Positions 7,803 to 59,430 of a stretch of 64,000 nt of DNA are shown here, one piece after another. The position numbers and the translations under genes were made by a program. The stretch lies in the sequence record PP418985.1; one strand, given 5' to 3'. Every line of letters begins with the position of its first letter. Position 1 is the first letter of the stretch. Below the pieces are notes generated by a model. It saw only the letters and a list, made by a program, of their open reading frames with translations, was not told the origin of the DNA and ran no database searches. Source of the DNA: Escherichia phage UPWr_E1.

Positions 7803-8045
7803 ATGGTTGTTATTAACGATATCTCTAAGGTAATTCATCTTGAATCAATTGTCGCGTGGAACCGTCAAAAGATTCATTGTGACTATACACAACATGTAAT
7901 GAATTTTAACCACAAGGTACGCGCATACATGGCAACGGATCGACTGTTAACCGATAATTACGGTAAAGGAATTATTGATTGTAGCGGTTTCATTCTGGAT
8001 AAAAACGATCTGGAGTTATTCCGACACATCGCGGAGGATATTTAA
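7803..8045 (+). CDS. Hypothetical protein
   Basis: 80-aa ORF. Confidence 0.4.
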   Translation: MVVINDISKVIHLESIVAWNRQKIHCDYTQHVMNFNHKVRAYMATDRLLTDNYGKGIIDCSGFILDKNDLELFRHIAEDI

Positions 8046-8715
8046 AATGCTTCCAGTGGATTTAATGATTGACTTTGAAAGTTTAGGTTATCCGCCTGAT
8101 GGGGCGGTAATCAATATGGCGGCAATCGGATTTAAAGAAGACCCACATAATCCACCGACTTTTAAAGAACTGGTTGACAATTCCTTTCTGGTAAAATTTG
8201 ATATTCCTTCCCAGAAAGGTGTAAGGATCTTTGATCATGGTGTGGTTGAATGGTGGAAGAATACCGCCTCAGAAGGCATGAGAAAGCAATTAATCACAAA
8301 TGGTACGGAAGTATCAACTAAAGAAGGTTTAGCGCGTTTTAACGCATTCTGTGAATCTGTAGGAGTAGATCCGGTTAAATCCGTAATGTGGTCACGCGGT
8401 AATGCGTTTGATATTCCGTTACTAGTTGATATGATTCGACGTGCTCATAATACCCGTGAGACGTTCAGCCTTGAACCTGTGCGATTCTGGAACATCCGAG
8501 ATGTTCGCACCGCCATTGAGCGTACATTGATGCATCGTGGTATGTGTGAATGCCCGTTACCAATGGGTACGCTAGACGGATTTATCGCGCATGATGCAAT
8601 TCATGATTGCGCTCGCGATATTCTTATGCTAATCTATGCACAACGTTATGCTATGGGTCTGGAAGACCTACCAGAAAATCCAGATCCAAATTCAGTTAAG
8701 AAACAAAGGGGATAA
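8046..8715 (+). CDS. dexA: Exonuclease A (DexA-like DEDD 3'-5' exonuclease)
   Basis: Start moved to the ATG after GGAGGA; Exo motif I DFESLG and motif III HDAIHDCARD; adjacent to dda as in T4. Confidence 0.8.
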
Positions 8716-18248: not shown

Positions 18249-18277
18249 TTGACTTCAAGAATCTAGCATTGCATAAT
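18249..18277 (+). promoter_or_regulatory. Sigma70-type early promoter
   Basis: AAAAGTTGTTGACT-17-CATAAT, just after a terminator. Confidence 0.6.
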
Positions 18278-23642: not shown

Positions 23643-23945
23643 TTAGCGGTTGCTCAAACGTCTATAGCGAAGATGGGAAATACCCCTGTTTGTAGTTACC
23701 GTGATCGTTACTCCCTGCGGCACAATACAAGAATGGATCTGTCCCCAATCATGACCCTTATGACTCCCAGACACACAAAAGCCATGCAAAAGCAATTCAG
23801 AGTCACCGCCACCACCACCAGAAGAATGAGCACCAAATGAAACCGTACCGAAAGCGTCTGGTGTCCATCCATTAGGGATATCAAACCAACCCTGATTCGC
23901 TTTACCAGCTTTATTACCTAAAACACCATCTACCCACCATCCCAT
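23643..23945 (-). CDS. Gly/His-rich small protein, paralog 3 of tandem triplet
   Basis: 100 aa; shares GWFxIPNGW, Gly-rich centre and C-terminal aromatic/basic tail with the next two ORFs. Confidence 0.55.
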   Translation of the reverse strand: MGWWVDGVLGNKAGKANQGWFDIPNGWTPDAFGTVSFGAHSSGGGGGDSELLLHGFCVSGSHKGHDWGQIHSCIVPQGVTITVTTNRGISHLRYRRLSNR

Positions 23946-24244
23946 TAATGCATTCTCCTAAATTGGAAGTGGTTTAAACTTCCTTTGCCAATACTAAAGC
24001 TGACAGTAGCGCCAGCACCAACTAAAGAACTAGCTCCCCAACTTCCTGCACTACCGGCGTGATGACCAGATTCAAGAGTACCGTTTACATATAGCTCTGC
24101 ATCTAGGTCATTACCAGCGGCTTCGGCATGAACAGATACAATACCGCATGAATCTGCCACCCAACCATTAGGAATACCAAACCATCCACCATTAGCATAA
24201 ATGCTAATAGCATTTGCCATTCTTCCAGCAATCCACCCAGCCAT
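23945..24244 (-). CDS. Gly/His-rich small protein, paralog 2 of tandem triplet
   Basis: 99 aa; ANGGWFGIPNGWVADSCGIVS; start overlaps upstream stop. Confidence 0.55.
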   Translation of the reverse strand: MAGWIAGRMANAISIYANGGWFGIPNGWVADSCGIVSVHAEAAGNDLDAELYVNGTLESGHHAGSAGSWGASSLVGAGATVSFSIGKGSLNHFQFRRMH

Positions 24245-24246
24245 AA

Positions 24247-24543
24247 TTAAAACTCCATAAATTTAAAGTATTCAATCCCACCGACACCACCATGACCAAA
24301 TGTAACAGTACATCCAGCAGGAACAAACGCATTAACGGTAAATCCCCAATCCCCGCCACCACGACGACGAGCGGCAACTACACCATCAACGGAAATATGC
24401 ATATCACCCCAACCATCATTAGCATTATGCCGCAAAACAGCAACCCCTGCACGACTGGGTACATATCCATTTGGAATATCAAAAACATGCCATTTTAAAG
24501 CATCAATTTTAGTATTAATTTCACTACCGACCCAATATCCCAT
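24247..24543 (-). CDS. Gly/His-rich small protein, paralog 1 of tandem triplet
   Basis: 98 aa; WHVFDIPNGYVPSRAGVAV; immediately downstream of gene 37. Confidence 0.55.
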   Translation of the reverse strand: MGYWVGSEINTKIDALKWHVFDIPNGYVPSRAGVAVLRHNANDGWGDMHISVDGVVAARRRGGGDWGFTVNAFVPAGCTVTFGHGGVGGIEYFKFMEF

Positions 24544-43746: not shown

Positions 43747-43914
43747 ATGACCAAATTAAAATGTGTTGCTGTAGATTTTGAACTAGCCGATAGCTTTGTT
43801 GTCGGTGATGTATATGATGCTCGACATGATGGGACTTGCTACTACGTTGAGGATGAATACGGCGTAGAATGGGCTATTCTTCCTGATGATAAATGCTTTG
43901 AGGTTGTCGAATAA
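43747..43914 (+). CDS. Hypothetical small protein
   Basis: Start moved to ATG after promoter 43687-43715 and SD GTGAGGA. Confidence 0.4.
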   Translation: MTKLKCVAVDFELADSFVVGDVYDARHDGTCYYVEDEYGVEWAILPDDKCFEVVE

Positions 43915-44087
43915 TGGCTACTGTATGGTTATTGATTGCAATCAGCAATTCAATGTATAATTACGGAAATATGTCAAGCATTGAATTTGCAACAAAGCAG
44001 GATTGCGTTAAAGCTCGCGAGATTATCCGCGAAGACAATAAACGCTTTATGAATCTGTACTGTGTTGAAAAGCAGAAGGTGAACTAA
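43914..44087 (+). CDS. Small protein, tandem paralog A (hydrophobic N-terminus)
   Basis: 57-aa ORF read by hand: MATVWLLIAISNS...SIEF...C...F.NLYCVEK. Confidence 0.4.
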   Translation: MATVWLLIAISNSMYNYGNMSSIEFATKQDCVKAREIIREDNKRFMNLYCVEKQKVN

Positions 44088-44254
44088 TGGCTACAATATG
44101 GTTATTGCTTTCCGTTAGCGTAGGCTCATATAATAAAGGAACTGTTACCAGCGTGGAGTTTTCATCACATCAAAGTTGTTTTGAAGCCGTGCAGGAATTG
44201 CAACAGGATAACGAAATAAACAGAAATACTAAGTTCTTTTGTGTTAAAAAGTGA
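44087..44254 (+). CDS. Small protein, tandem paralog B (hydrophobic N-terminus)
   Basis: 55-aa ORF read by hand: MATIWLLLSVSVGS...SVEF...C...KFFCVKK; TAATG overlap with paralog A. Confidence 0.4.
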   Translation: MATIWLLLSVSVGSYNKGTVTSVEFSSHQSCFEAVQELQQDNEINRNTKFFCVKK

Positions 44255-51944: not shown

Positions 51945-52413
51945 AATTGATATCTATGCGGGTGGACCTTATCCATCGGGTGAATTGAGTAATTTCAATA
52001 AAAGACCATTCCGTCTATTTGGTTGCGATATTAACAGCACAGAAGGATTTTTACAGGGGCTAAGATTTAAGAACCCTCAGAGACAAAGAGAAATCTTTTT
52101 GATGCACGGTGGCAAAGCAAAAAGAACCGGAAGAACTGAAAAGATTGAGAATCACATGTTATATTTTCAGGGTCGCCAGATTCATCGAATGAGTGAGCAT
52201 TATTACAGACTGGTACATCTGGCATTTGTTACGATGGCACGGAATAACCCAGAATTTTGTAAAGCATTACTCGCTACAGGAAATAAGAAATTACGTCATA
52301 GTATAGGTGGAACTGATCCGTTAAAGACCATATTGACCGAATCGGAATTTTGTAGTATCCTCAATGATATTCGTGAACGTTTAACAAAACGAGGTGAAAA
52401 TGTCAATTCTTAA
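51934..52413 (+). CDS. NADAR (YbiA/DUF1768-like) domain protein
   Basis: 159 aa; GELSNFNKRPF...STEGFLQGLRFKN...GGKAKRTGR...MSEHY...LLATGNKKLRHS pattern of NADAR. Confidence 0.55.
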   Translation: MTSEIDIYAGGPYPSGELSNFNKRPFRLFGCDINSTEGFLQGLRFKNPQRQREIFLMHGGKAKRTGRTEKIENHMLYFQGRQIHRMSEHYYRLVHLAFVTMARNNPEFCKALLATGNKKLRHSIGGTDPLKTILTESEFCSILNDIRERLTKRGENVNS

Positions 52414-53896
52414 TATCATTAATCAGCTTGCAGCAACAGACAAAACATCTCTGAAAGAAAAGATTCTGAAAGAATCTGCAAGCAATGAAACACTGAAAGA
52501 ATGCTTTTATCTGGCATATTGCAAACAGGTTACGTTTGGCGTAAAGAAATACGATAAACCATCGCGTTATTCGTCTGTATTGTCTTTATCTGGTGCATTA
52601 CAGGTCTTTAAAAATAAACTTGCCACGCGTCAAGTAACTGGTAATGCAGCATTACAGCTAGTTACCGATACTCTGACTTGCTTGTCAGAAGATGATGCTA
52701 AAGTTGCAATGATGGTCCTGAATCGCGATCTAGAATGCGGTTGTTCCGCTACCACTGCAAACAAGGTATGGAAGAAACTGATCCCCCAGCAACCATGCCA
52801 CCTTGCATCGTCATATTCTGATAAGGCTATTGCTAATATCAAATATCCGGCATATGCACAACTTAAAAGTGATGGCGCTCGTGGTATGGCTGATATTGAC
52901 GGGGAAACATTAGCAATCTATACCCGTTCAGGTAATACCTATCAGGGACTTGATGATTTGTTTGCTGTTTTAGAGCGTCTACGAGGCCGTGGAATTGTTC
53001 TAGATGGCGAATTGGTATATATGCCTACCCTTTCGCAAACACCAGCGCAGAACTTCGTTGAAAGCGTTTATGATGGTACTCTGTCATGGATATTTGAAGA
53101 AGAGGAAATGCCATTAACGCCAGTAGCGGAAGCAGTAAAAGAATCCGTTGTTGCAGATCGTCAGACCGGAAATGGTATCCTCAACAAATCACTGAAAGGA
53201 ACTATTCCAAAAGAAGAAGCCCAATGTATTGTTTACACTGTCTGGGATGTTATCGACCGTGATGTGTATTACGGAAACGAGAAAGCAACGAAGCAATATA
53301 AAGATCGATTCGAAGAACTAAAACAGATTGTTGAAGAACTTAACGATCCTCGTGTGCAGATAATCGAAAATACTGTAGTTAACAATATCGATGAAGCTCG
53401 CGAAGTATATCATCGCTATGTAAACATGGGCTTAGAAGGTATTATCCTTAAAAATTTACATGGTGTATTTGAAGATCGTCGCAGTAAAGATCAGGTTAAA
53501 TTTAAAGAAGTGATTGACTTCGACGCGGAAATTGTTGATGTATATCCGCATAGTAAAGATCCTAATAAGGTAGGCGGTTTTACTGTCCGTAGCGCGTGCG
53601 GACGAATGATGACTAACACCGGATCGGGATTGACAGACACCACAACCGAAAAAGGTGATGATGGTATCGAACGTGTGATTCCGTTAGATCGTCGAAATGA
53701 ACTTGACCGAGAAATGTTATGGGCTGACCGTCATAACCTGATTGGAAAAGTCATCGAGATGACATGCAACGGGTATATCCGCAGCAAATCACGTAAAGAA
53801 GATGAACCGGAGTTCTCTTTATTTCTCCCGATCATCAAACGTATTCGCTACGACAAGACCACTGCAAATACAGTAAAAGAGGTATTCGATGTGTGA
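52394..53896 (+). CDS. 30: ATP-dependent DNA ligase (gp30-like)
   Basis: 500 aa; adenylation motif I QLKSDGARG (KxDGxR), motifs EGIILK and downstream OB region. Confidence 0.9.
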   Translation: MKMSILNIINQLAATDKTSLKEKILKESASNETLKECFYLAYCKQVTFGVKKYDKPSRYSSVLSLSGALQVFKNKLATRQVTGNAALQLVTDTLTCLSEDDAKVAMMVLNRDLECGCSATTANKVWKKLIPQQPCHLASSYSDKAIANIKYPAYAQLKSDGARGMADIDGETLAIYTRSGNTYQGLDDLFAVLERLRGRGIVLDGELVYMPTLSQTPAQNFVESVYDGTLSWIFEEEEMPLTPVAEAVKESVVADRQTGNGILNKSLKGTIPKEEAQCIVYTVWDVIDRDVYYGNEKATKQYKDRFEELKQIVEELNDPRVQIIENTVVNNIDEAREVYHRYVNMGLEGIILKNLHGVFEDRRSKDQVKFKEVIDFDAEIVDVYPHSKDPNKVGGFTVRSACGRMMTNTGSGLTDTTTEKGDDGIERVIPLDRRNELDREMLWADRHNLIGKVIEMTCNGYIRSKSRKEDEPEFSLFLPIIKRIRYDKTTANTVKEVFDV

Positions 53897-54365
53897 TAAT
53901 GAAGGGGCGAAAGCCCCTAAACCTAAAAAATTGTCAAAGAAAGAGCAACGCCAGATCCTGAAAATGAAATACGGTGGACGTTGTGCCTATTGTGGCGAGG
54001 AACTAGGGGATCGCTGGCACGCAGACCACATCAAACCAGTATTACGACGCTCAAAAGTAGTCTATGATGAAAATGGACGAATTGCCCGTAATGATGATGG
54101 ATCGTGGAAGTATAAGGTTGTAGGAATGCATAAACCGGAGCATGATATACTTGATAACATGAATCCGGCGTGTGTGCAATGCAATCTTTATAAAAGCTGT
54201 ATGGGCTTAGAATACTGGCGTAAGTGTATACGCGAGAACTTCCAGAAGTACATTCAGCGCAATATGGGATTGCGAGCGGCTAAACGCTTTGGCTTACTGT
54301 CAATCCACGATCAGCCAGTAGAATTTTATTTCGAAAAGTACGAGCGCGAGCATCAAGAAAAATAA
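53889..54365 (+). CDS. HNH endonuclease
   Basis: CAYCGEELGDRWHADHIKP ... NMNPACVQCN: HNH with zinc-binding cysteines; overlaps ligase stop. Confidence 0.7.
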   Translation: MCDNEGAKAPKPKKLSKKEQRQILKMKYGGRCAYCGEELGDRWHADHIKPVLRRSKVVYDENGRIARNDDGSWKYKVVGMHKPEHDILDNMNPACVQCNLYKSCMGLEYWRKCIRENFQKYIQRNMGLRAAKRFGLLSIHDQPVEFYFEKYEREHQEK

Positions 54366-54378
54366 TTCAAAAAAGTTG

Positions 54379-54407
54379 TTGACAGGGGATCACCGATCCC
54401 CTATACT
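54379..54407 (+). promoter_or_regulatory. Sigma70-type early promoter with palindromic double-GATC spacer
   Basis: TTGACA then GGGGATCACCGATCCCC then TATACT. Confidence 0.6.
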
Positions 54408-54441
54408 ACACACATACCGAAACGAACTAGGAGAATCAATT

Positions 54442-54621
54442 ATGAACTTCAACGAAATCATCGCTAAAATCCGCTACAACGAAGAAACCATTGAACTGAT
54501 GCAAAACAATATCACCAATGGCTATATGATTGCAGCGTCACAAGAAATCATTGATTTGACAGTAGCAGAAAATGCTCAGTTGAAACATCAACTTTCTACG
54601 GCTGGCGTGATTGTGATGTAA
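54442..54621 (+). CDS. Hypothetical small early protein
   Basis: 59 aa; start moved to ATG after promoter 54379-54407 and SD AGGAGAATCAA. Confidence 0.4.
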   Translation: MNFNEIIAKIRYNEETIELMQNNITNGYMIAASQEIIDLTVAENAQLKHQLSTAGVIVM

Positions 54622-54640
54622 TTTAACGAGAGGTAACTAA

Positions 54641-54907
54641 ATGAAGACAGTAAAAGATATCGTAGACAATCGCAAAGATGCAGTGGGTAAAATTTTTCAA
54701 TTACCAGAATCACCGATTGGACTTATTATCTACGTAACAGAAGATGATGTGTATGCTATTTGGAACGGCAACGATACATTCCACCCAGGAAACGGTCATC
54801 TGATCAATACTATGGAAGGTGAAGAACCACAACCAGTACACTTACTGGCACACAGTGTCACTATCGACGAACTGGAAGATGCAGCTAAACATATTCGGAG
54901 CATGTAA
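54641..54907 (+). CDS. Small protein, HxHW-family paralog (divergent)
   Basis: LIIYVTEDDVYAIW...GNGHLIN...HSVTIDELEDAAK. Confidence 0.45.
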   Translation: MKTVKDIVDNRKDAVGKIFQLPESPIGLIIYVTEDDVYAIWNGNDTFHPGNGHLINTMEGEEPQPVHLLAHSVTIDELEDAAKHIRSM

Positions 54908-54908
54908 C

Positions 54909-55229
54909 ATGGCAAAAGTTCAGGTAGGTGAAGTATTCAAAATGGCGGACCATACCGTAGAAGAGATGAAAGGTGCGGTACTGAAAGCAACCAATTCTAT
55001 GATGCGTAGTGTCCTTTACATCAACTTTATCGATGGTGATGTGTGGTGGGCTAGCGATAGTTGCAAATGGGATGAAGATTGTAACTTGGTTATCAAGTTC
55101 GGCAAAGGTCATAATCACTGGCTAGGAACAGAGGATGTTGTAGAAGTGCTGGCGGTTGATATTATGCCTAGCGAGATCGATAATCTTACTGGAACTGCAA
55201 ACGAAGTATTGACACGACATTTTGTGTAA
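54909..55229 (+). CDS. Small protein, HxHW-family paralog
   Basis: Start moved to MAKVQ; GKGHNHWLGTEDVVEVLAVDI. Confidence 0.45.
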   Translation: MAKVQVGEVFKMADHTVEEMKGAVLKATNSMMRSVLYINFIDGDVWWASDSCKWDEDCNLVIKFGKGHNHWLGTEDVVEVLAVDIMPSEIDNLTGTANEVLTRHFV

Positions 55230-55286
55230 TGTAATATAACAATCATTGGGAGGGGCAATACTCTCCCACAAATTGAGGATAATATT

Positions 55287-55589
55287 ATGGAACGTACCAA
55301 TTTGTTTGTAACCGAACCTTTCGTTGAAGGCAACAAGAACCTTGCTAATACGGTTATTCTTTACGAAGATTGGATCTTTTACATCGATGAGAATTTAGAT
55401 GTATATTGTCGTCCAACTCCAAATGACTCATTCTATATCGAAGAAAACGATACCCATAATCATTGGTATGACGGAAACGACGAAACCGATCTTGCTATTG
55501 TTCTCGAATCCGGCGTAGAATCGGAACATGCCGATGAAGTAGCAGACAAATTTATGAAATACGCATATAAAGATAAAGATGAAGAATAA
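55287..55589 (+). CDS. Small protein, HxHW-family paralog
   Basis: DTHNHWYDG...DLAIVLESG; acidic C-terminus. Confidence 0.5.
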   Translation: MERTNLFVTEPFVEGNKNLANTVILYEDWIFYIDENLDVYCRPTPNDSFYIEENDTHNHWYDGNDETDLAIVLESGVESEHADEVADKFMKYAYKDKDEE

Positions 55590-55596
55590 AAAGTTG

Positions 55597-55625
55597 TTGA
55601 CAGGGGATCGGTGATCCCCTATAAT
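55597..55625 (+). promoter_or_regulatory. Sigma70-type early promoter with palindromic double-GATC spacer
   Basis: TTGACA then GGGGATCGGTGATCCCC then TATAAT. Confidence 0.65.
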
Positions 55626-55659
55626 GCACACATACCAACGAGATATAGGAGAATCAAAA

Positions 55660-55827
55660 ATGTTCCAGACTAAAGCAGAATGCGAAGCATACATTGTAGC
55701 AAACCACGGTGAAGACTACCTGAAATTCGATATCGTAGTAGCACAGAAGATCACCGGAATGGTTGCAAAATATCTGGGTGTTAAAGAAGGTTACTATCCA
55801 AGCAACGCACCGGAAATTAACAAATAA
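55660..55827 (+). CDS. Hypothetical small early protein
   Basis: Start moved to ATG after promoter 55597-55625. Confidence 0.4.
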   Translation: MFQTKAECEAYIVANHGEDYLKFDIVVAQKITGMVAKYLGVKEGYYPSNAPEINK

Positions 55828-55830
55828 TAG

Positions 55831-55859
55831 TTGACAATGATTAAAGGGAGTAGTAAGAT
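55831..55859 (+). promoter_or_regulatory. Sigma70-type early promoter with -10 inside a hairpin
   Basis: TTGACA-17-TAAGAT; GGGAGTA/TACTCCC. Confidence 0.6.
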
Positions 55860-55892
55860 ACTCCCATCAAGACAACAAACGGAGAATCAAAA

Positions 55893-56072
55893 ATGAAAGC
55901 TATCGAAGTTCAGAAGTACATGGAAATCATCGTTGAAGGTAAAGCACATACAGTATTGACTACTCACGTAGGATATGATAAAAATGTGCATATGCTGGTA
56001 GACAATATCGGTTGGATGAAGTTTAATCCTAACGAGAATGTACAAGCTCAAGAAATGACCATCCCTTTCTAA
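55893..56072 (+). CDS. Hypothetical small early protein
   Basis: 59-aa ORF read by hand, downstream of promoter 55831-55859 and SD GGAGAATCAAA. Confidence 0.4.
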   Translation: MKAIEVQKYMEIIVEGKAHTVLTTHVGYDKNVHMLVDNIGWMKFNPNENVQAQEMTIPF

Positions 56073-56084
56073 GAGGAATATATT

Positions 56085-56363
56085 ATGATGCGAATTACTG
56101 CAACACTGGATAAGACACACAAAGAAAGATTTTTCGGTATGATCTTAAAAACGCCGATTTTCGATAATTACCTTTATGTTGACTATGAAGGTCACATTAG
56201 CTATAAATGTAAAAATGATATTCGTGATTCCTTTGGTGATAAATCACAAGCTGATATTCATGACCACTGGTGGACCTTCGACGAACCTTTACGGATTATC
56301 GCAGTTGATGTAAAAACAATAAAAGAAGCTGATAAGGTAGTTAACAATTATGAGCAAATTTAA
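56085..56363 (+). CDS. Small protein, HxHW-family paralog
   Basis: YLYVDYEGHISY...DIHDHWWTFDEPLRIIAVDV. Confidence 0.5.
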   Translation: MMRITATLDKTHKERFFGMILKTPIFDNYLYVDYEGHISYKCKNDIRDSFGDKSQADIHDHWWTFDEPLRIIAVDVKTIKEADKVVNNYEQI

Positions 56364-56559
56364 AGATTATAAAGCATATCAACAGATCCTGCGAGTATAC
56401 GAACCAGAGTTCGCCGAAAAGATGATGGAAGATGCATCAAAATGCCCGTCCTTTTCTGGAAACAAAAACCATTATTCGACTGGTATTGTGTCATGGAAAG
56501 AAACCGCATATACTCAACAATGGATAGATGTGTTTTCAAAAACTCTTGAGTGGTGTTAA
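56350..56559 (+). CDS. Small protein, MSKFKDY tandem paralog A
   Basis: MSKFKDYKAYQQI...MMEDA...GIVSWKETAY. Confidence 0.45.
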   Translation: MSKFKDYKAYQQILRVYEPEFAEKMMEDASKCPSFSGNKNHYSTGIVSWKETAYTQQWIDVFSKTLEWC

Positions 56560-56561
56560 TT

Positions 56562-56777
56562 ATGAGCAAATTTAAAGATTATCGAGCATATAAAGCGATC
56601 TGCGATATATTCGATGAAAAGACCGCTCATGCAATGATGGAAGATGCAGAACAATATGAATCATTCGTCAATTCCAAAGATTGCACAGTAAACGGGATTG
56701 TGTGCTGGAAAGATACAAAGTATGAAGAAAAATGGATTACCGTGTATTACGGAGAACTAGAATATGAAATTAACTAA
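56562..56777 (+). CDS. Small protein, MSKFKDY tandem paralog B
   Basis: Start moved to MSKFKDYRAYKAI; MMEDA...GIVCWKDTKY. Confidence 0.45.
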   Translation: MSKFKDYRAYKAICDIFDEKTAHAMMEDAEQYESFVNSKDCTVNGIVCWKDTKYEEKWITVYYGELEYEIN

Positions 56778-57066
56778 AAAGATTTTCCCAGAATTGCGTA
56801 ACTGTCTGTTATTGGTTACTGAATATAAGCCGTATACGATCTACTTGTATGTTGATGAAAATCTGAAAATCCGTTACTATGATTATACGTCTCCAGTGAT
56901 GAAATCATTTGCTCACTCGATAGCAAATAACTGTATGAATCATAATCATTGGGTATCAGAAACGGATGACGATGCGTCAGAAGTTGTAGTGGTTGCATGG
57001 AATCTATCACCAGCGGAAGCAGATCAAGCACGCATTAAGCATTATGCGAAAAAACAATTGGTTTGA
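56764..57066 (+). CDS. Small protein, HxHW-family paralog
   Basis: IYLYVDENLKIRYYDY...MNHNHWVSETDD...VVVVAW. Confidence 0.5.
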   Translation: MKLTKKIFPELRNCLLLVTEYKPYTIYLYVDENLKIRYYDYTSPVMKSFAHSIANNCMNHNHWVSETDDDASEVVVVAWNLSPAEADQARIKHYAKKQLV

Positions 57067-57089
57067 CCTTATAAGTGAGGACTAATATT

Positions 57090-57368
57090 ATGTTCAAAGT
57101 AGGTGATAAGTTTATTCTTAGTCGTGATATTCTCCCTAATCTGAAAGGTTGTATCATCAATCCTAGTAAAAATTCATGGTTTTATCTGTTTATCGACGAT
57201 TCTCTAAATGTACGCGCCGAATATAAAGAAGGTCTTCGTACTGGCCTCGGTTTCTTTCACGATCACGATCATAGCCATTGGCTAAACGGTGGATTCGAAG
57301 CAACGGTGCTAGCGGTTGATGTGACCTACACAAACATCATAGAAAAATACCAAAAAATTATTTTATAA
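57090..57368 (+). CDS. Small protein, HxHW-family paralog
   Basis: Start moved to MFKVGDK; FYLFIDDSLNVRAEY...HDHDHSHWLNGGFEATVLAVDV. Confidence 0.5.
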   Translation: MFKVGDKFILSRDILPNLKGCIINPSKNSWFYLFIDDSLNVRAEYKEGLRTGLGFFHDHDHSHWLNGGFEATVLAVDVTYTNIIEKYQKIIL

Positions 57369-57374
57369 AAAGTG

Positions 57375-57403
57375 TTGACATAAGATCGGGTGTATAGCAT
57401 AAT
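57375..57403 (+). promoter_or_regulatory. Sigma70-type early promoter with -10 inside a hairpin
   Basis: TTGACA-17-CATAAT; GGGTGTAT/ATACACCC. Confidence 0.6.
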
Positions 57404-57449
57404 ACACCCATCGAAACGAGATACACTTTCTAACTAGGAGAATCAAATT

Positions 57450-57737
57450 ATGGCATACATCACTATCACGCTGAAAGTTAACAAATTTGCTCACGCTGCA
57501 CACGAAACCGATAATGCAATCCGTAACAACAAGTTTGCACGTCTGGTACGCGATGCAGTAGCTAAAGAGTTCAACTTCAAATTTGCAGATGGTAAAGTTA
57601 TCACTAAATGGACTCATGGCGGCGAAACTAAAGTAGAACTTGCTGATAACTTCGCAAATCAGGAATATGCACACCGTCGCATTAATGAAATTATCAGCGA
57701 CGAACTCTACTACGGTGTACAGGAAGGACTGTTTTAA
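57450..57737 (+). CDS. Hypothetical small early protein
   Basis: Promoter 57375-57403 upstream; terminator downstream. Confidence 0.45.
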   Translation: MAYITITLKVNKFAHAAHETDNAIRNNKFARLVRDAVAKEFNFKFADGKVITKWTHGGETKVELADNFANQEYAHRRINEIISDELYYGVQEGLF

Positions 57738-57743
57738 TATATG

Positions 57744-57763
57744 GGGGCGTTAACGCCCCTTTT
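57744..57763 (+). terminator. Rho-independent terminator
   Basis: GGGGCGTT-AACGCCCC followed by TTTT. Confidence 0.7.
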
Positions 57764-57787
57764 CATCCAACTATTGAGGATAATACT

Positions 57788-58093
57788 ATGAAAGATAATA
57801 TCTTTGAATTTACCCGCGAAAATCTCCCAATGTTCCGAAAGTCTCTGCTTAAACTAGATAACAGTAATTATGATGTATATTTTTACATCACAGAAGACCT
57901 AGAGATCCTTTACGCTGATTACCCTGGTCCGATCCGTACTTTCGAAAAAGCATCAAAGTATAAAAATGTGCACGGTCACACGCACTGGCTACGAGAAAAT
58001 TCAGTCAAGAAAGCGCGCGTTAAAGTGATTGCAATTGACGTAACGCCGGAACATGCTGACCGGATTGCACAGAATGATTATTTGTCTAAATGA
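57788..58093 (+). CDS. Small protein, HxHW-family paralog
   Basis: VYFYITEDLEILYADY...HGHTHWLRENS...VKVIAIDV. Confidence 0.5.
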   Translation: MKDNIFEFTRENLPMFRKSLLKLDNSNYDVYFYITEDLEILYADYPGPIRTFEKASKYKNVHGHTHWLRENSVKKARVKVIAIDVTPEHADRIAQNDYLSK

Positions 58094-58117
58094 TTTTATT
58101 AGCCGACCTTAGTGTCG
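58091..58117 (+). terminator. Rho-independent terminator (PeSL-type cassette)
   Basis: AGCCGAC-CTTAGT-GTCGGCT followed by TTTTTATT; promoter follows. Confidence 0.75.
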
Positions 58118-58151
58118 GCTTTTTATTGCCAAAAATTTTTTAAAAAAGGCA

Positions 58152-58180
58152 TTGACACCAGATCCTGTATATAGCATAAT
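58152..58180 (+). promoter_or_regulatory. Sigma70-type early promoter
   Basis: TTGACA-17-CATAAT directly after terminator 58091-58117. Confidence 0.6.
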
Positions 58181-58207
58181 ACACCCATCGAAACGAGATT
58201 GAGGGAA

Positions 58208-58393
58208 ATGAAGATGAAGATTTTATACAAGCATGGATGGTATAAAGTAAAAGCTATCGCCGATGGAGTCAAATATGAAGTGATTGTATTTGACGGATTC
58301 AACACTTATTGCGAAGATGTTAAATTGCCTTCAATGGGATGTGCTTATGATTATTGCAAACAAAGAATTGATAATAAAGCCAACTGCTTCTGA
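58208..58393 (+). CDS. Hypothetical small early protein
   Basis: ATG (MKMKILYK) after promoter 58152-58180; the track start is an upstream TTG. Confidence 0.4.
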   Translation: MKMKILYKHGWYKVKAIADGVKYEVIVFDGFNTYCEDVKLPSMGCAYDYCKQRIDNKANCF

Positions 58394-58632: not shown

Positions 58633-58654
58633 TTCCAAAAAATTAAAAAAGTTG

Positions 58655-58683
58655 TTGACACCTGATCACGCCTATAGCATAAT
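58655..58683 (+). promoter_or_regulatory. Sigma70-type early promoter
   Basis: AAAAAGTTGTTGACA-17-CATAAT directly after terminator 58607-58632. Confidence 0.6.
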
Positions 58684-58723
58684 ACACACATCGAAACGAG
58701 ATACCACTTAGGAGAATCAAACA

Positions 58724-58993
58724 ATGGCACTGACTAAAACCACTACCAGCTTTGCAAAACGTCACGGTTTCGACCTTGAAATCAATAGCTTTGAAGATTA
58801 CACCCTTCTGTGTGTATATGAAATCGAAAATGATTGCGAGTGGATGTTCAGCTATCGCGTAAACGAAGACGGATCTTTCACTTGGAACGGAAATATCTAT
58901 CTTGCACAGGAAGTAAAAGAAGAACTTCCGGCGACTATCAAAGATGAGAAACATTTACGTCAAGTTTTAAAATTTATTTCTGAAAATATCTAA
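58724..58993 (+). CDS. Hypothetical small early protein
   Basis: Promoter 58655-58683 upstream. Confidence 0.45.
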   Translation: MALTKTTTSFAKRHGFDLEINSFEDYTLLCVYEIENDCEWMFSYRVNEDGSFTWNGNIYLAQEVKEELPATIKDEKHLRQVLKFISENI

Positions 58994-59002
58994 AAAAAGT
59001 TG

Positions 59003-59031
59003 TTGACACCAAAGTAAGAACATAGCATAAT
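59003..59031 (+). promoter_or_regulatory. Sigma70-type early promoter
   Basis: AAAAAAGTTGTTGACA-17-CATAAT. Confidence 0.6.
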
Positions 59032-59064
59032 ACACCCATACCGAAACGAACGGGAGAATCAAAA

Positions 59065-59346: not shown

Positions 59347-59360
59347 TTTTAAAAAAGTTG

Positions 59361-59390
59361 TTGACGGGGGATCGGGAGATCCCCTATAAT
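59361..59390 (+). promoter_or_regulatory. Sigma70-type early promoter with palindromic double-GATC spacer
   Basis: TTGACG then GGGGATCGGGAGATCCCC then TATAAT; drives the operon ending in the MTase-like/Zn-ribbon/DUF262 genes. Confidence 0.6.
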
Positions 59391-59430
59391 ACACACATCA
59401 AGACGAGATACTACTTAGGAGAATCAAACA

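Follow-up and report, generated by a model that had tools for sequence, protein, structure and literature searches.

A lineage-restricted superfamily of small His-Trp motif proteins in a variable region of Escherichia phage UPWr_E1

A 64,000-nucleotide stretch of the genome of Escherichia phage UPWr_E1 (sequence record PP418985.1; hereafter the window) was found to contain, between positions 54641 and 58093 on the + strand, seven open reading frames (ORFs) that are real, translated-looking genes of one superfamily, which is lineage-restricted, old, constrained, and dispensable. We named the genes by their start positions as p1 (54641), p2 (54909), p3 (55287), p4 (56085), p5 (56764), p6 (57090), and p7 (57788). 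An earlier note on this DNA had described the seven as paralogs sharing an H-x-H-W motif; all seven ORFs are present on the + strand where that note had placed them, and a Shine-Dalgarno-like GAGG or GGAG is located 6 to 10 nt 5′ of each.

The window comes from a Krischvirus (an RB49-like, T4-type coliphage), and the cluster lies between conserved core genes, as PeSL/ORFan modules do, in a variable region that has the DNA ligase gene (gene 30) and an HNH gene on one side and alt on the other. This is one of the RB49-type hyperplastic regions, for which promoter-early-stem-loop (PeSL) cassettes and ORFan shuffling have been described (Arbiol, Comeau, Kutateladze, Adamia, Krisch 2010, PMC2839356). 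The test cases of that study, ORFan192, ORFan210, and PeSL206/205, are positioned inside or flanking the family cluster, and the RB49 counterparts of the cluster, RB49p197 to RB49p208, are all labelled 'hypothetical protein'.

Six H-x-H-W paralogs and a divergent seventh member

The relationship among p2 to p7 was evaluated against every stop-to-stop ORF of at least 45 amino acids in all six frames of the whole window (500 ORFs, 47,372 residues). In single-sequence phmmer searches of this set, the five best non-self matches of each of the six proteins were the other five, with p7 as the closest paralog of p5 (E about 1e-12). Leave-one-out profiles built from five members recovered the sixth at E values from 3.8e-5 to 3.5e-13, and the next unrelated ORF was at an E value of at least 0.06. 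The motif H-x-H-W was observed six times in the 47,372 residues, compared to 0.48 expected from composition, and all six occurrences are in p2 to p7. The alignments also contained the consensus blocks that had been reported on both sides of this motif, namely an N-terminal block reading YLYIDExLxV and a hydrophobic block reading VxVLAVDV, with H-N-H-W as the central consensus. Therefore, the family p2 to p7 is statistically solid, and the shared motifs are supported.

The six members differ in detail. Gene p2 (54909..55229, + strand) has its start codon 1 nt past the p1 stop codon and encodes 106 amino acids with GHNHW, an AVDV-type block ending LAVDI, and an isoelectric point (pI) of 4.75 (leave-one-out E of 2.3e-8). 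The 100-residue product of p3 (55287..55589, +) contains THNHW and is strongly acidic, with a net charge of -19 and a pI of 4.1 (3.8e-5), whereas the net charge of p7 is +1, and the pI across members ranges from 4.1 to 7.9. Gene p4 (56085..56363, +) encodes 92 amino acids with IHDHW and IAVDV (2.8e-7); p5 (56764..57066, +), 100 amino acids with NHNHW and VAWNL; and p6 (57090..57368, +), 92 amino acids with the His run HDHDHSHW and LAVDV (2.5e-8). Gene p7 (57788..58093, +), which was chosen for the structure model described below, encodes 101 amino acids with HGHTHW and IAIDV. By inspection, no Cys clusters and no signal or membrane segments were found in the family proteins.

Gene p1 (54641..54907, +) is an accessory gene that encodes 88 amino acids with a pI of 4.8 and has N-x-H-L (G-N-G-H-L) instead of H-x-H-W. 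The claim that the motif is present in all seven ORFs thus stands for six of them but not for p1, and the earlier note had in fact listed six motifs for seven ORFs. Plain HMMER did not detect p1 as a relative of the six-member family (E 0.1 to 0.8). We then compared the family alignment (A3) by hhalign with an alignment of p1 and its own homologs (A4), which fall into five clusters that are 59 to 99% identical. The two alignments matched with a probability of 90.8% and an E value of 1.2e-6 over 70 columns in register. In this register the p1 group has its invariant His at the position of the second His of H-x-H-W and an invariant Asn at that of the first, and the same register was obtained in an independent MAFFT alignment of 29 sequences. 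Several p1 homologs read LLAVDV, LLATDV, or LLARDV where p1 reads LLAHSV.

Structure comparison linked the two groups from both sides. When an AlphaFold2 (AF2) model of p7 was compared by Foldseek to the BFVD database, the significant matches were all Krischvirus proteins, and the match at rank 6 (E 8e-3, template modelling (TM) scores 0.55/0.62) was C4MZ33, which is 99% identical to p1 and is its ortholog EpJSE_00215 in phage JSE. In the other direction, a model of p1 of lower confidence (predicted local distance difference test (pLDDT) score of 66) matched its own ortholog, and its next matches were two H-x-H-W members (E 4e-3 and 0.075). The hhalign match, the MAFFT register, and these reciprocal Foldseek links show that p1 is a distant homolog of the H-x-H-W family, so that the count of seven is defensible as six members and one divergent branch.

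The searches of known families returned nothing with a function. Sequence searches of Pfam, NCBIfam, and the PDB with the seven proteins and the profile gave nothing above noise, in line with the earlier view that no family could be recognised. In PHROGs, p2 to p7 had full-length hidden Markov model (HMM) matches (E 3e-45 to 1.5e-64), all to groups of 'unknown function', whereas p1 had no match. The groups are the same genes as p2 to p7, each paralog going to its own PHROG group: phrog_16486 (p2), phrog_15965 (p3), phrog_15972 (p4), phrog_17255 (p6), and phrog_9345 (p5 and p7), the last of which also weakly cross-matches p2, p3, and p6. The genes were therefore already in the databases as hypothetical proteins, but there the family is split into five unrelated-looking groups, with none for p1, and the superfamily becomes visible only by profile and fold comparison. 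What is new here, although incremental, is that five PHROG groups of unknown function and one ORF outside any group are united in a single superfamily, together with the recognition of a seventh branch and of the one residue, a His, that is invariant. No mention of the family genes was found in the literature on RB49, on Krischvirus anti-defence, or in the accessory-gene screen of Silas et al.

Distribution, age, and selection

A megablast search of 50,697 phage genomes with positions 54400 to 58300 gave 58 matching records at ~90 to 94% identity, all of them Escherichia or Shigella phages of the genus Krischvirus (RB49, phi1, JSE, GEC-3S, FL20, and others). The identical 58 records, and no others, were returned by tblastn with the six paralogs concatenated and again with nine divergent metagenomic members concatenated. 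At greater depth, a profile search of 1.84 billion cluster representatives yielded 21 proteins at an E value of 1e-3 or less, of which about 19 were genuine: phage proteins of 68 to 128 amino acids and one two-domain fusion of 203 amino acids (P0059). Two much longer and highly repetitive proteins, P0067 (1034 amino acids) and P0069 (662 amino acids), reached E values of 1e-6 to 1e-5 through five to six weak repeats (for example KTKEGHSHTWKDT) and were judged to be artefacts of repeat summation or low complexity. Two profiles, the second from a broader alignment (A5), were also run in word-indexed searches against 5.8 billion clusters, which found orthologs only and none outside the lineage. 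Within the phages themselves, an HMM scan of the window and of RB49 (1 to 75 kb and 110 to 130 kb) found exactly six copies, all in the cluster. The proposed lineage-specific expansion of a protein of ~90 to 105 amino acids was thus borne out by the search across phage genomes, in that the paralogy held and the family was confined to the 58 Krischvirus records and a small number of relatives from metagenomes.

The paralog types are old. Each of the divergent metagenomic members scored far best against a single paralog type, and a 2.1-kb metagenome contig (SRR8048117_15661; L002) carries, in a tight operon, counterparts of the two 59-residue ORFs of the window cluster (orf59a and orf59b, see below) in the order orf59a, p2-type, orf59b, fusion, p4-type, and p5-type. 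A relative with a 72%-identical ligase has two p3-type genes in the equivalent slot between ligase and alt. Because of the match of divergent members to single types, the synteny of the contig, and the p3-type pair in the ligase-alt slot, we conclude that the duplications predate the lineage splits. The likely history of the cluster is an old tandem array that was later interrupted by insertions of PeSL cassettes and ORFans. The fusion protein P0059 (L002 823-1434) has two family domains that each contain HNHW and are separated by a ~30-residue linker, and it is part of a tight five-domain array in this diverged relative.

The p1 branch was present in 8 of the 58 Krischvirus records. A p1-type homolog of 97 amino acids, 66% identical, is encoded at 8001-8294 in Salmonella enterica assemblies (L008-L011), where it is the last gene of a prophage and adjoins host metabolic genes, with a terminase GpA gene and a Phage_pRha gene nearby. 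Therefore, this branch of the family appears to have moved between virulent T4-type and temperate phages.

Selection on the genes was quantified by comparison to the RB49, GEC-3S, and JSE orthologs. The ratio of nonsynonymous to synonymous divergence (dN/dS; Nei-Gojobori) was 0.03 to 0.27 wherever the divergence was sufficient, and the family genes are under purifying selection. The synonymous divergence (dS) of p2, p3, and p7 was 0.4 to 1.2, compared to 0.11 to 0.16 for the adjacent ligase gene. Taking the ligase and HNH genes together (0.08 to 0.17), the dS of these three family genes was 3 to 10 times greater, and p5 and p6 were nearly identical between the phages (54909-58093 compared to 52394-53896). 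This unevenness from gene to gene indicates gene-by-gene mosaic exchange within the cluster.

Gene content pointed the same way. Diverged alleles that are 54 to 56% identical were found for p4 in GEC-3S (56%) and for p5 in JSE; in JSE, p7 is also frameshifted, and two other family alleles occupy the place of p5 and p6. In FL04 and Cognac, p2 and p3 are the sole members kept. At least 80% of the six-gene set was found in one place in 48 of the 58 genomes. The genes are constrained yet individually dispensable, and are swapped as diverged alleles among close phages, which is the behaviour described for the RB49-type hyperplastic region. Both the lineage restriction and the variable presence in close relatives that characterise PeSL/ORFan modules were found for the family, which is an accessory ORFan family of T4-type hyperplastic regions.

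Promoter cassettes and transcription units

It had been claimed that most of the seven genes have their own promoter, and this did not hold up: the strong promoter cassettes precede ORFs that are not family members, and p3 alone has a candidate private promoter. Seven conserved cassette copies were located at 54366-54441, 55584-55659, 57362-57449, 58139-58213, 58642-58723, 58990-59064, and 59348-59430. Each consists of an AT-rich tract, (G)TTGACA, a 17-nt spacer that is often palindromic (a perfect palindrome being, for example, GGGGATCACCGATCCCC), a TATAAT-like element, and a conserved leader with a ribosome-binding site, reading ACACATCGAAACGAGAT...TAGGAGAATCAA and running to the ATG. The transcribed leader and ribosome-binding site are conserved as well as the promoter part. 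The seven cassettes match the PeSL elements that Arbiol et al. (2010) described. Every one of them is immediately 5′ of a non-family ORF (54442, 55660, 57450, 58214, and beyond), so the family genes would mostly be the second or later genes in three to four early transcription units.

The first unit, from the promoter at 54379, would comprise the ORF at 54442 (59 amino acids, orf59a), p1, and p2. Its PeSL cassette (54366..54441, +) has TTGACA, a 17-nt palindromic spacer, and TATACT (11 of 12 consensus positions matched), contains repeat families D2 and D3, and has an equivalent promoter annotated in GEC-3S. The second unit would be p3 alone, directly 5′ of which we found a weaker candidate promoter (55209..55267, +) with TTGACA-17-TAATAT at 55209-55237 (10 of 12 matched), followed by a stem-loop GGGAG...CTCCC. 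The third would start at a putative early promoter (55831..55859, +) with TTGACA-17-TAAGAT and a stem-loop in the spacer, a promoter being annotated at the equivalent GEC-3S site, and would comprise the 59-residue ORF at 55893 (orf59b), p4, two ORFs of 69 and 71 amino acids, p5, and p6. The fourth, from the promoter at 57375, belongs to a PeSL cassette (57362..57449, +; repeat families D1, D2, and D4) that would serve an ORF of 95 amino acids at 57450, with p7 further 3′ behind a GC-rich hairpin. This hairpin (57744..57763, +), read from the sequence as GGGGCG-TTAA-CGCCCC with TTTT, was not listed in the scan of the window, and the GEC-3S record has an annotated terminator at the equivalent site; transcription of p7 would need read-through. 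An intrinsic terminator-like hairpin with a T-run (58101..58120, +) closes the cluster after p7, and the equivalent GEC-3S site is an annotated terminator.

Early expression of the family genes is plausible. The promoters are of the sigma-70 type, the T4-type late promoter motif TATAAATA was not found within the cluster, and the cassette at 55584 is the counterpart of PeSL206/205 of RB49, for which promoter activity was demonstrated by lacZ fusion (Arbiol et al. 2010, PMC2839356).

The cluster resembles the PeSL ORFans of that study in several respects: they belong to the same phage group and the same variable region (RB49 ORF192-211), are small genes of unknown function interspersed with sigma-70 promoter and stem-loop cassettes, and vary in content between close relatives. 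They differ in that the family genes are mostly not directly behind a cassette and look like an older array with insertions of cassettes and ORFans. Arbiol et al. (PMC2839356) treated the regulatory cassettes and single ORFans, and the words 'paralog' and 'gene family' do not occur in their text.

It was also observed that the translation-initiation regions of p3 and p7 are nearly identical (ATTGAGGATAATAyTATG; 55272-55292 and 57773-57793), with a GC-rich hairpin before each. Because the proteins themselves are only ~20 to 27% identical, this shared leader may mark a recombination joint.

Predicted fold and possible function

The AF2 model of p7, made from a 20-sequence alignment, was confident (pLDDT 85, predicted TM score (pTM) 0.80), and its significant Foldseek matches in BFVD were members of the family alone. 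The model consists, in order, of a short β strand, a helical turn, three β strands (including the hairpin YFYITEDLEILY), a helix at residues 52 to 58, a loop with H64-x-H66-W67, a strand at 77 to 83 (VKVIAID), and a helix at 87 to 99. The domain is thus predicted to be a small soluble α/β unit with four N-terminal strands, a short helix, the His-Trp loop, a fifth strand, and a C-terminal helix. The 10-residue block that contains the His-Trp loop had the lowest pLDDT (66), which indicates that the motif would be in a loop and not in the core.

Among 29 diverse sequences, the second His of the motif is the sole invariant residue, and at least 90% of them retain the Tyr of LYID. The His alternation is longer in p6 (HDHDHSHW) and p7 (HGHTHW). 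These values bear on the metal-binding pair of His residues that had been suggested: the second His stood as an invariant position, whereas the pair did not, because the first His is not invariant and p1 has no H-x-H-W at all. For most members it is plausible that the loop binds a metal or ligand; however, this cannot be the universal mechanism because one His alone is invariant.

Known small proteins were compared to the family. Tad2/DUF2829, an anti-Thoeris sponge, gave no Pfam match, and the Foldseek values (E 1.1 with TM 0.28/0.40; E 0.81 with TM 0.51/0.64) were noise. The HIT motif (H-φ-H-φ-H-φ-φ) has a superficial likeness in p7 (HGHTHWL) and p6 (HDHDHSHWL), but three or more alternating His residues occur in p6 and p7 alone, the family consensus is H-N-H-W with the first His lost in some members, and no sequence or fold match to a HIT domain was found. 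Likewise, neither a KOW model match nor SH3-like structural neighbours that would indicate a KOW/SH3-like small β-barrel were found.

T4-type phages have large variable regions of small early genes, in which counter-defence and host-takeover functions have repeatedly been found. A putative role of the family in host takeover or anti-defence is reasonable, and we tentatively propose a mechanism, to which we give somewhat less than even weight. Host sigma-70 RNA polymerase would transcribe the genes early, as downstream genes of three to four short operons from PeSL cassettes, and their products would serve as accessory effectors inside the infected cell. A shared functional site on an exposed loop would be formed by the invariant His, in most cases together with an adjacent Trp and a second His. 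The loop may hold a divalent metal ion or small ligand in members with extended H-x-H-x-H runs, and the divergent remaining surface (to judge from the range of pI) would give each paralog its own partner in the host or a defence system. The family shares with small anti-defence binders and sponges (Tad2/DUF2829, Acb2, and anti-CRISPRs) a length of ~90 to 100 amino acids, early and accessory character, rapid allele turnover, and, for the p1 branch, occurrence in the accessory ends of prophages. In a more specific form of the proposal, which is unlikely as a whole, the unrecognised α/β fold would be a diversifiable early effector scaffold whose loop binds a ligand or feature common to all members, be it a metal, a second messenger of nucleotide type, or a motif conserved in the host. 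The paralogs would each disable a separate defence or function of the host, and the array would be a compact multi-target counter-defence locus, of which the p1 branch was taken up by Salmonella prophages.

A number of observations weigh against the effector proposal. Neither homology nor experiment connects any of the proteins with a target in the host, with a defence system, or with a metal. Early timing was read from promoter sequence, and the exposure of the His and Trp residues was judged from the confidence values and secondary structure alone. The first His is conserved in at least 90% of the sequences, but intact orthologs of the p3 type have Ser (P0055 and P0056) or Asp (P0062) at this position, and all of the p1 branch has Asn. 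About 90% of the sequences keep the Asp of YIDE, where p7 has Thr35, and about 70% keep that of AVDV (Asp84 in p7), which is Asn in the p5 lineage, and a complete conserved set of metal ligands appears to be absent from the family. Furthermore, because tandem sets of small-ORF paralogs are common in this genome (see below), the expansion by itself says little in favour of a role in an arms race.

The alternative that survives best, although we consider it improbable, is that the paralogs are subunits of a homo- or hetero-oligomeric early complex, which would explain the retention of the whole set in most genomes. The 48 genomes that keep most of the set in one place, the ancient conservation of the paralog types, and the natural fusion P0059 in a relative, which we count as a sign of two domains working together (the 'Rosetta-stone' argument), are consistent with a complex. 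The loss of p4 to p7 in FL04 and Cognac, the p7 frameshift in JSE, and the swaps for 54 to 56%-identical alleles count against an obligate hetero-complex because it would not easily tolerate them, and a more distant relative has two copies only. The proteins may instead be small enzymes that depend on a metal or on His catalysis, such as a phosphoesterase or hydrolase with a nucleotide signal or the end of a nucleic acid as its substrate, and the H-x-H(-W) loop and the conserved Asp of YIDE would then be the active site; this is also improbable. The proteins could also bind nucleic acids through base contacts of the Trp and His and thereby regulate early phage or host gene expression; the N termini of p2 and p6 (KVGDKFIL...LKG.I) look KOW-like, and one metagenome annotation names a p6 ortholog 'KOW2-KOW3 domains of Spt5'. 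We regard this as quite improbable, and the searches for KOW and SH3-like matches described above were empty.

There is very little to recommend packaged internal head proteins that are injected with the DNA, as from the variable internal protein (IP) loci of T4. The N terminus of p7 (MKDNIFEFTRE) loosely resembles the T4 capsid-targeting sequence MKTYQEFIAE, but the N termini are not conserved among the paralogs, the late motif was not found in the cluster, and all of its transcription signals are of the early sigma-70 type. The plastic IP loci of T4 have been likened to PeSL regions (Arbiol et al., PMC2839356). Chance similarity or non-coding ORFs can be set aside in view of the leave-one-out E values down to 3.5e-13, dN/dS well below 1, the retention of the ORFs in 58 genomes and in diverged metagenomic relatives, and the confident AF2 model.

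The array also has a practical side: it is a deletable 3.5-kb target that offers seven small proteins for study and a single point mutation. A function, if one is found, would provide annotation for hundreds of database entries; failing that, the array will be a further case of the paralog-rich dark matter that is ordinary in T4-like variable regions.

Turning to neighbouring genes, Pfam and PHROGs searches with ten neighbouring ORFs gave groups of unknown function only. The HNH endonuclease gene (53889-54365, +), which is also present in RB49, JSE, and GEC-3S, shares 8 nt with the end of the DNA ligase gene, and the first PeSL cassette comes directly after it.

Small ORFs have often been duplicated in tandem in this genome. 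Between p4 and p5, the ORFs at 56350-56559 and 56562-56777 (+) are a tandem paralog pair of 69 and 71 amino acids that are 45% identical, both start MSKFKDY..., and both belong to phrog_8471 ('unknown function'); the second copy is a 44 to 62%-identical allele in JSE and RB49. Elsewhere in the window, three tandem ORFs of ~100 amino acids are located at 23646-24543 (- strand; BLASTP E 1e-5 to 6e-15) and an overlapping paralog pair at 43902-44251 (+; BLASTP E 4e-14), and dispersed pairs on the + strand start at 18267/46259, 21598/22048, and 45382/49390. Finally, the 95-residue ORF 5′ of p7 (57450-57737, +; MAYITITLKVNKF...AKEFNFKF) and an ORFan210-type protein of GEC-3S (L001 1159-1470; MKYIVTLP...AKEFNTKI) have by eye a similar central segment, and the two may be another small family of the region.

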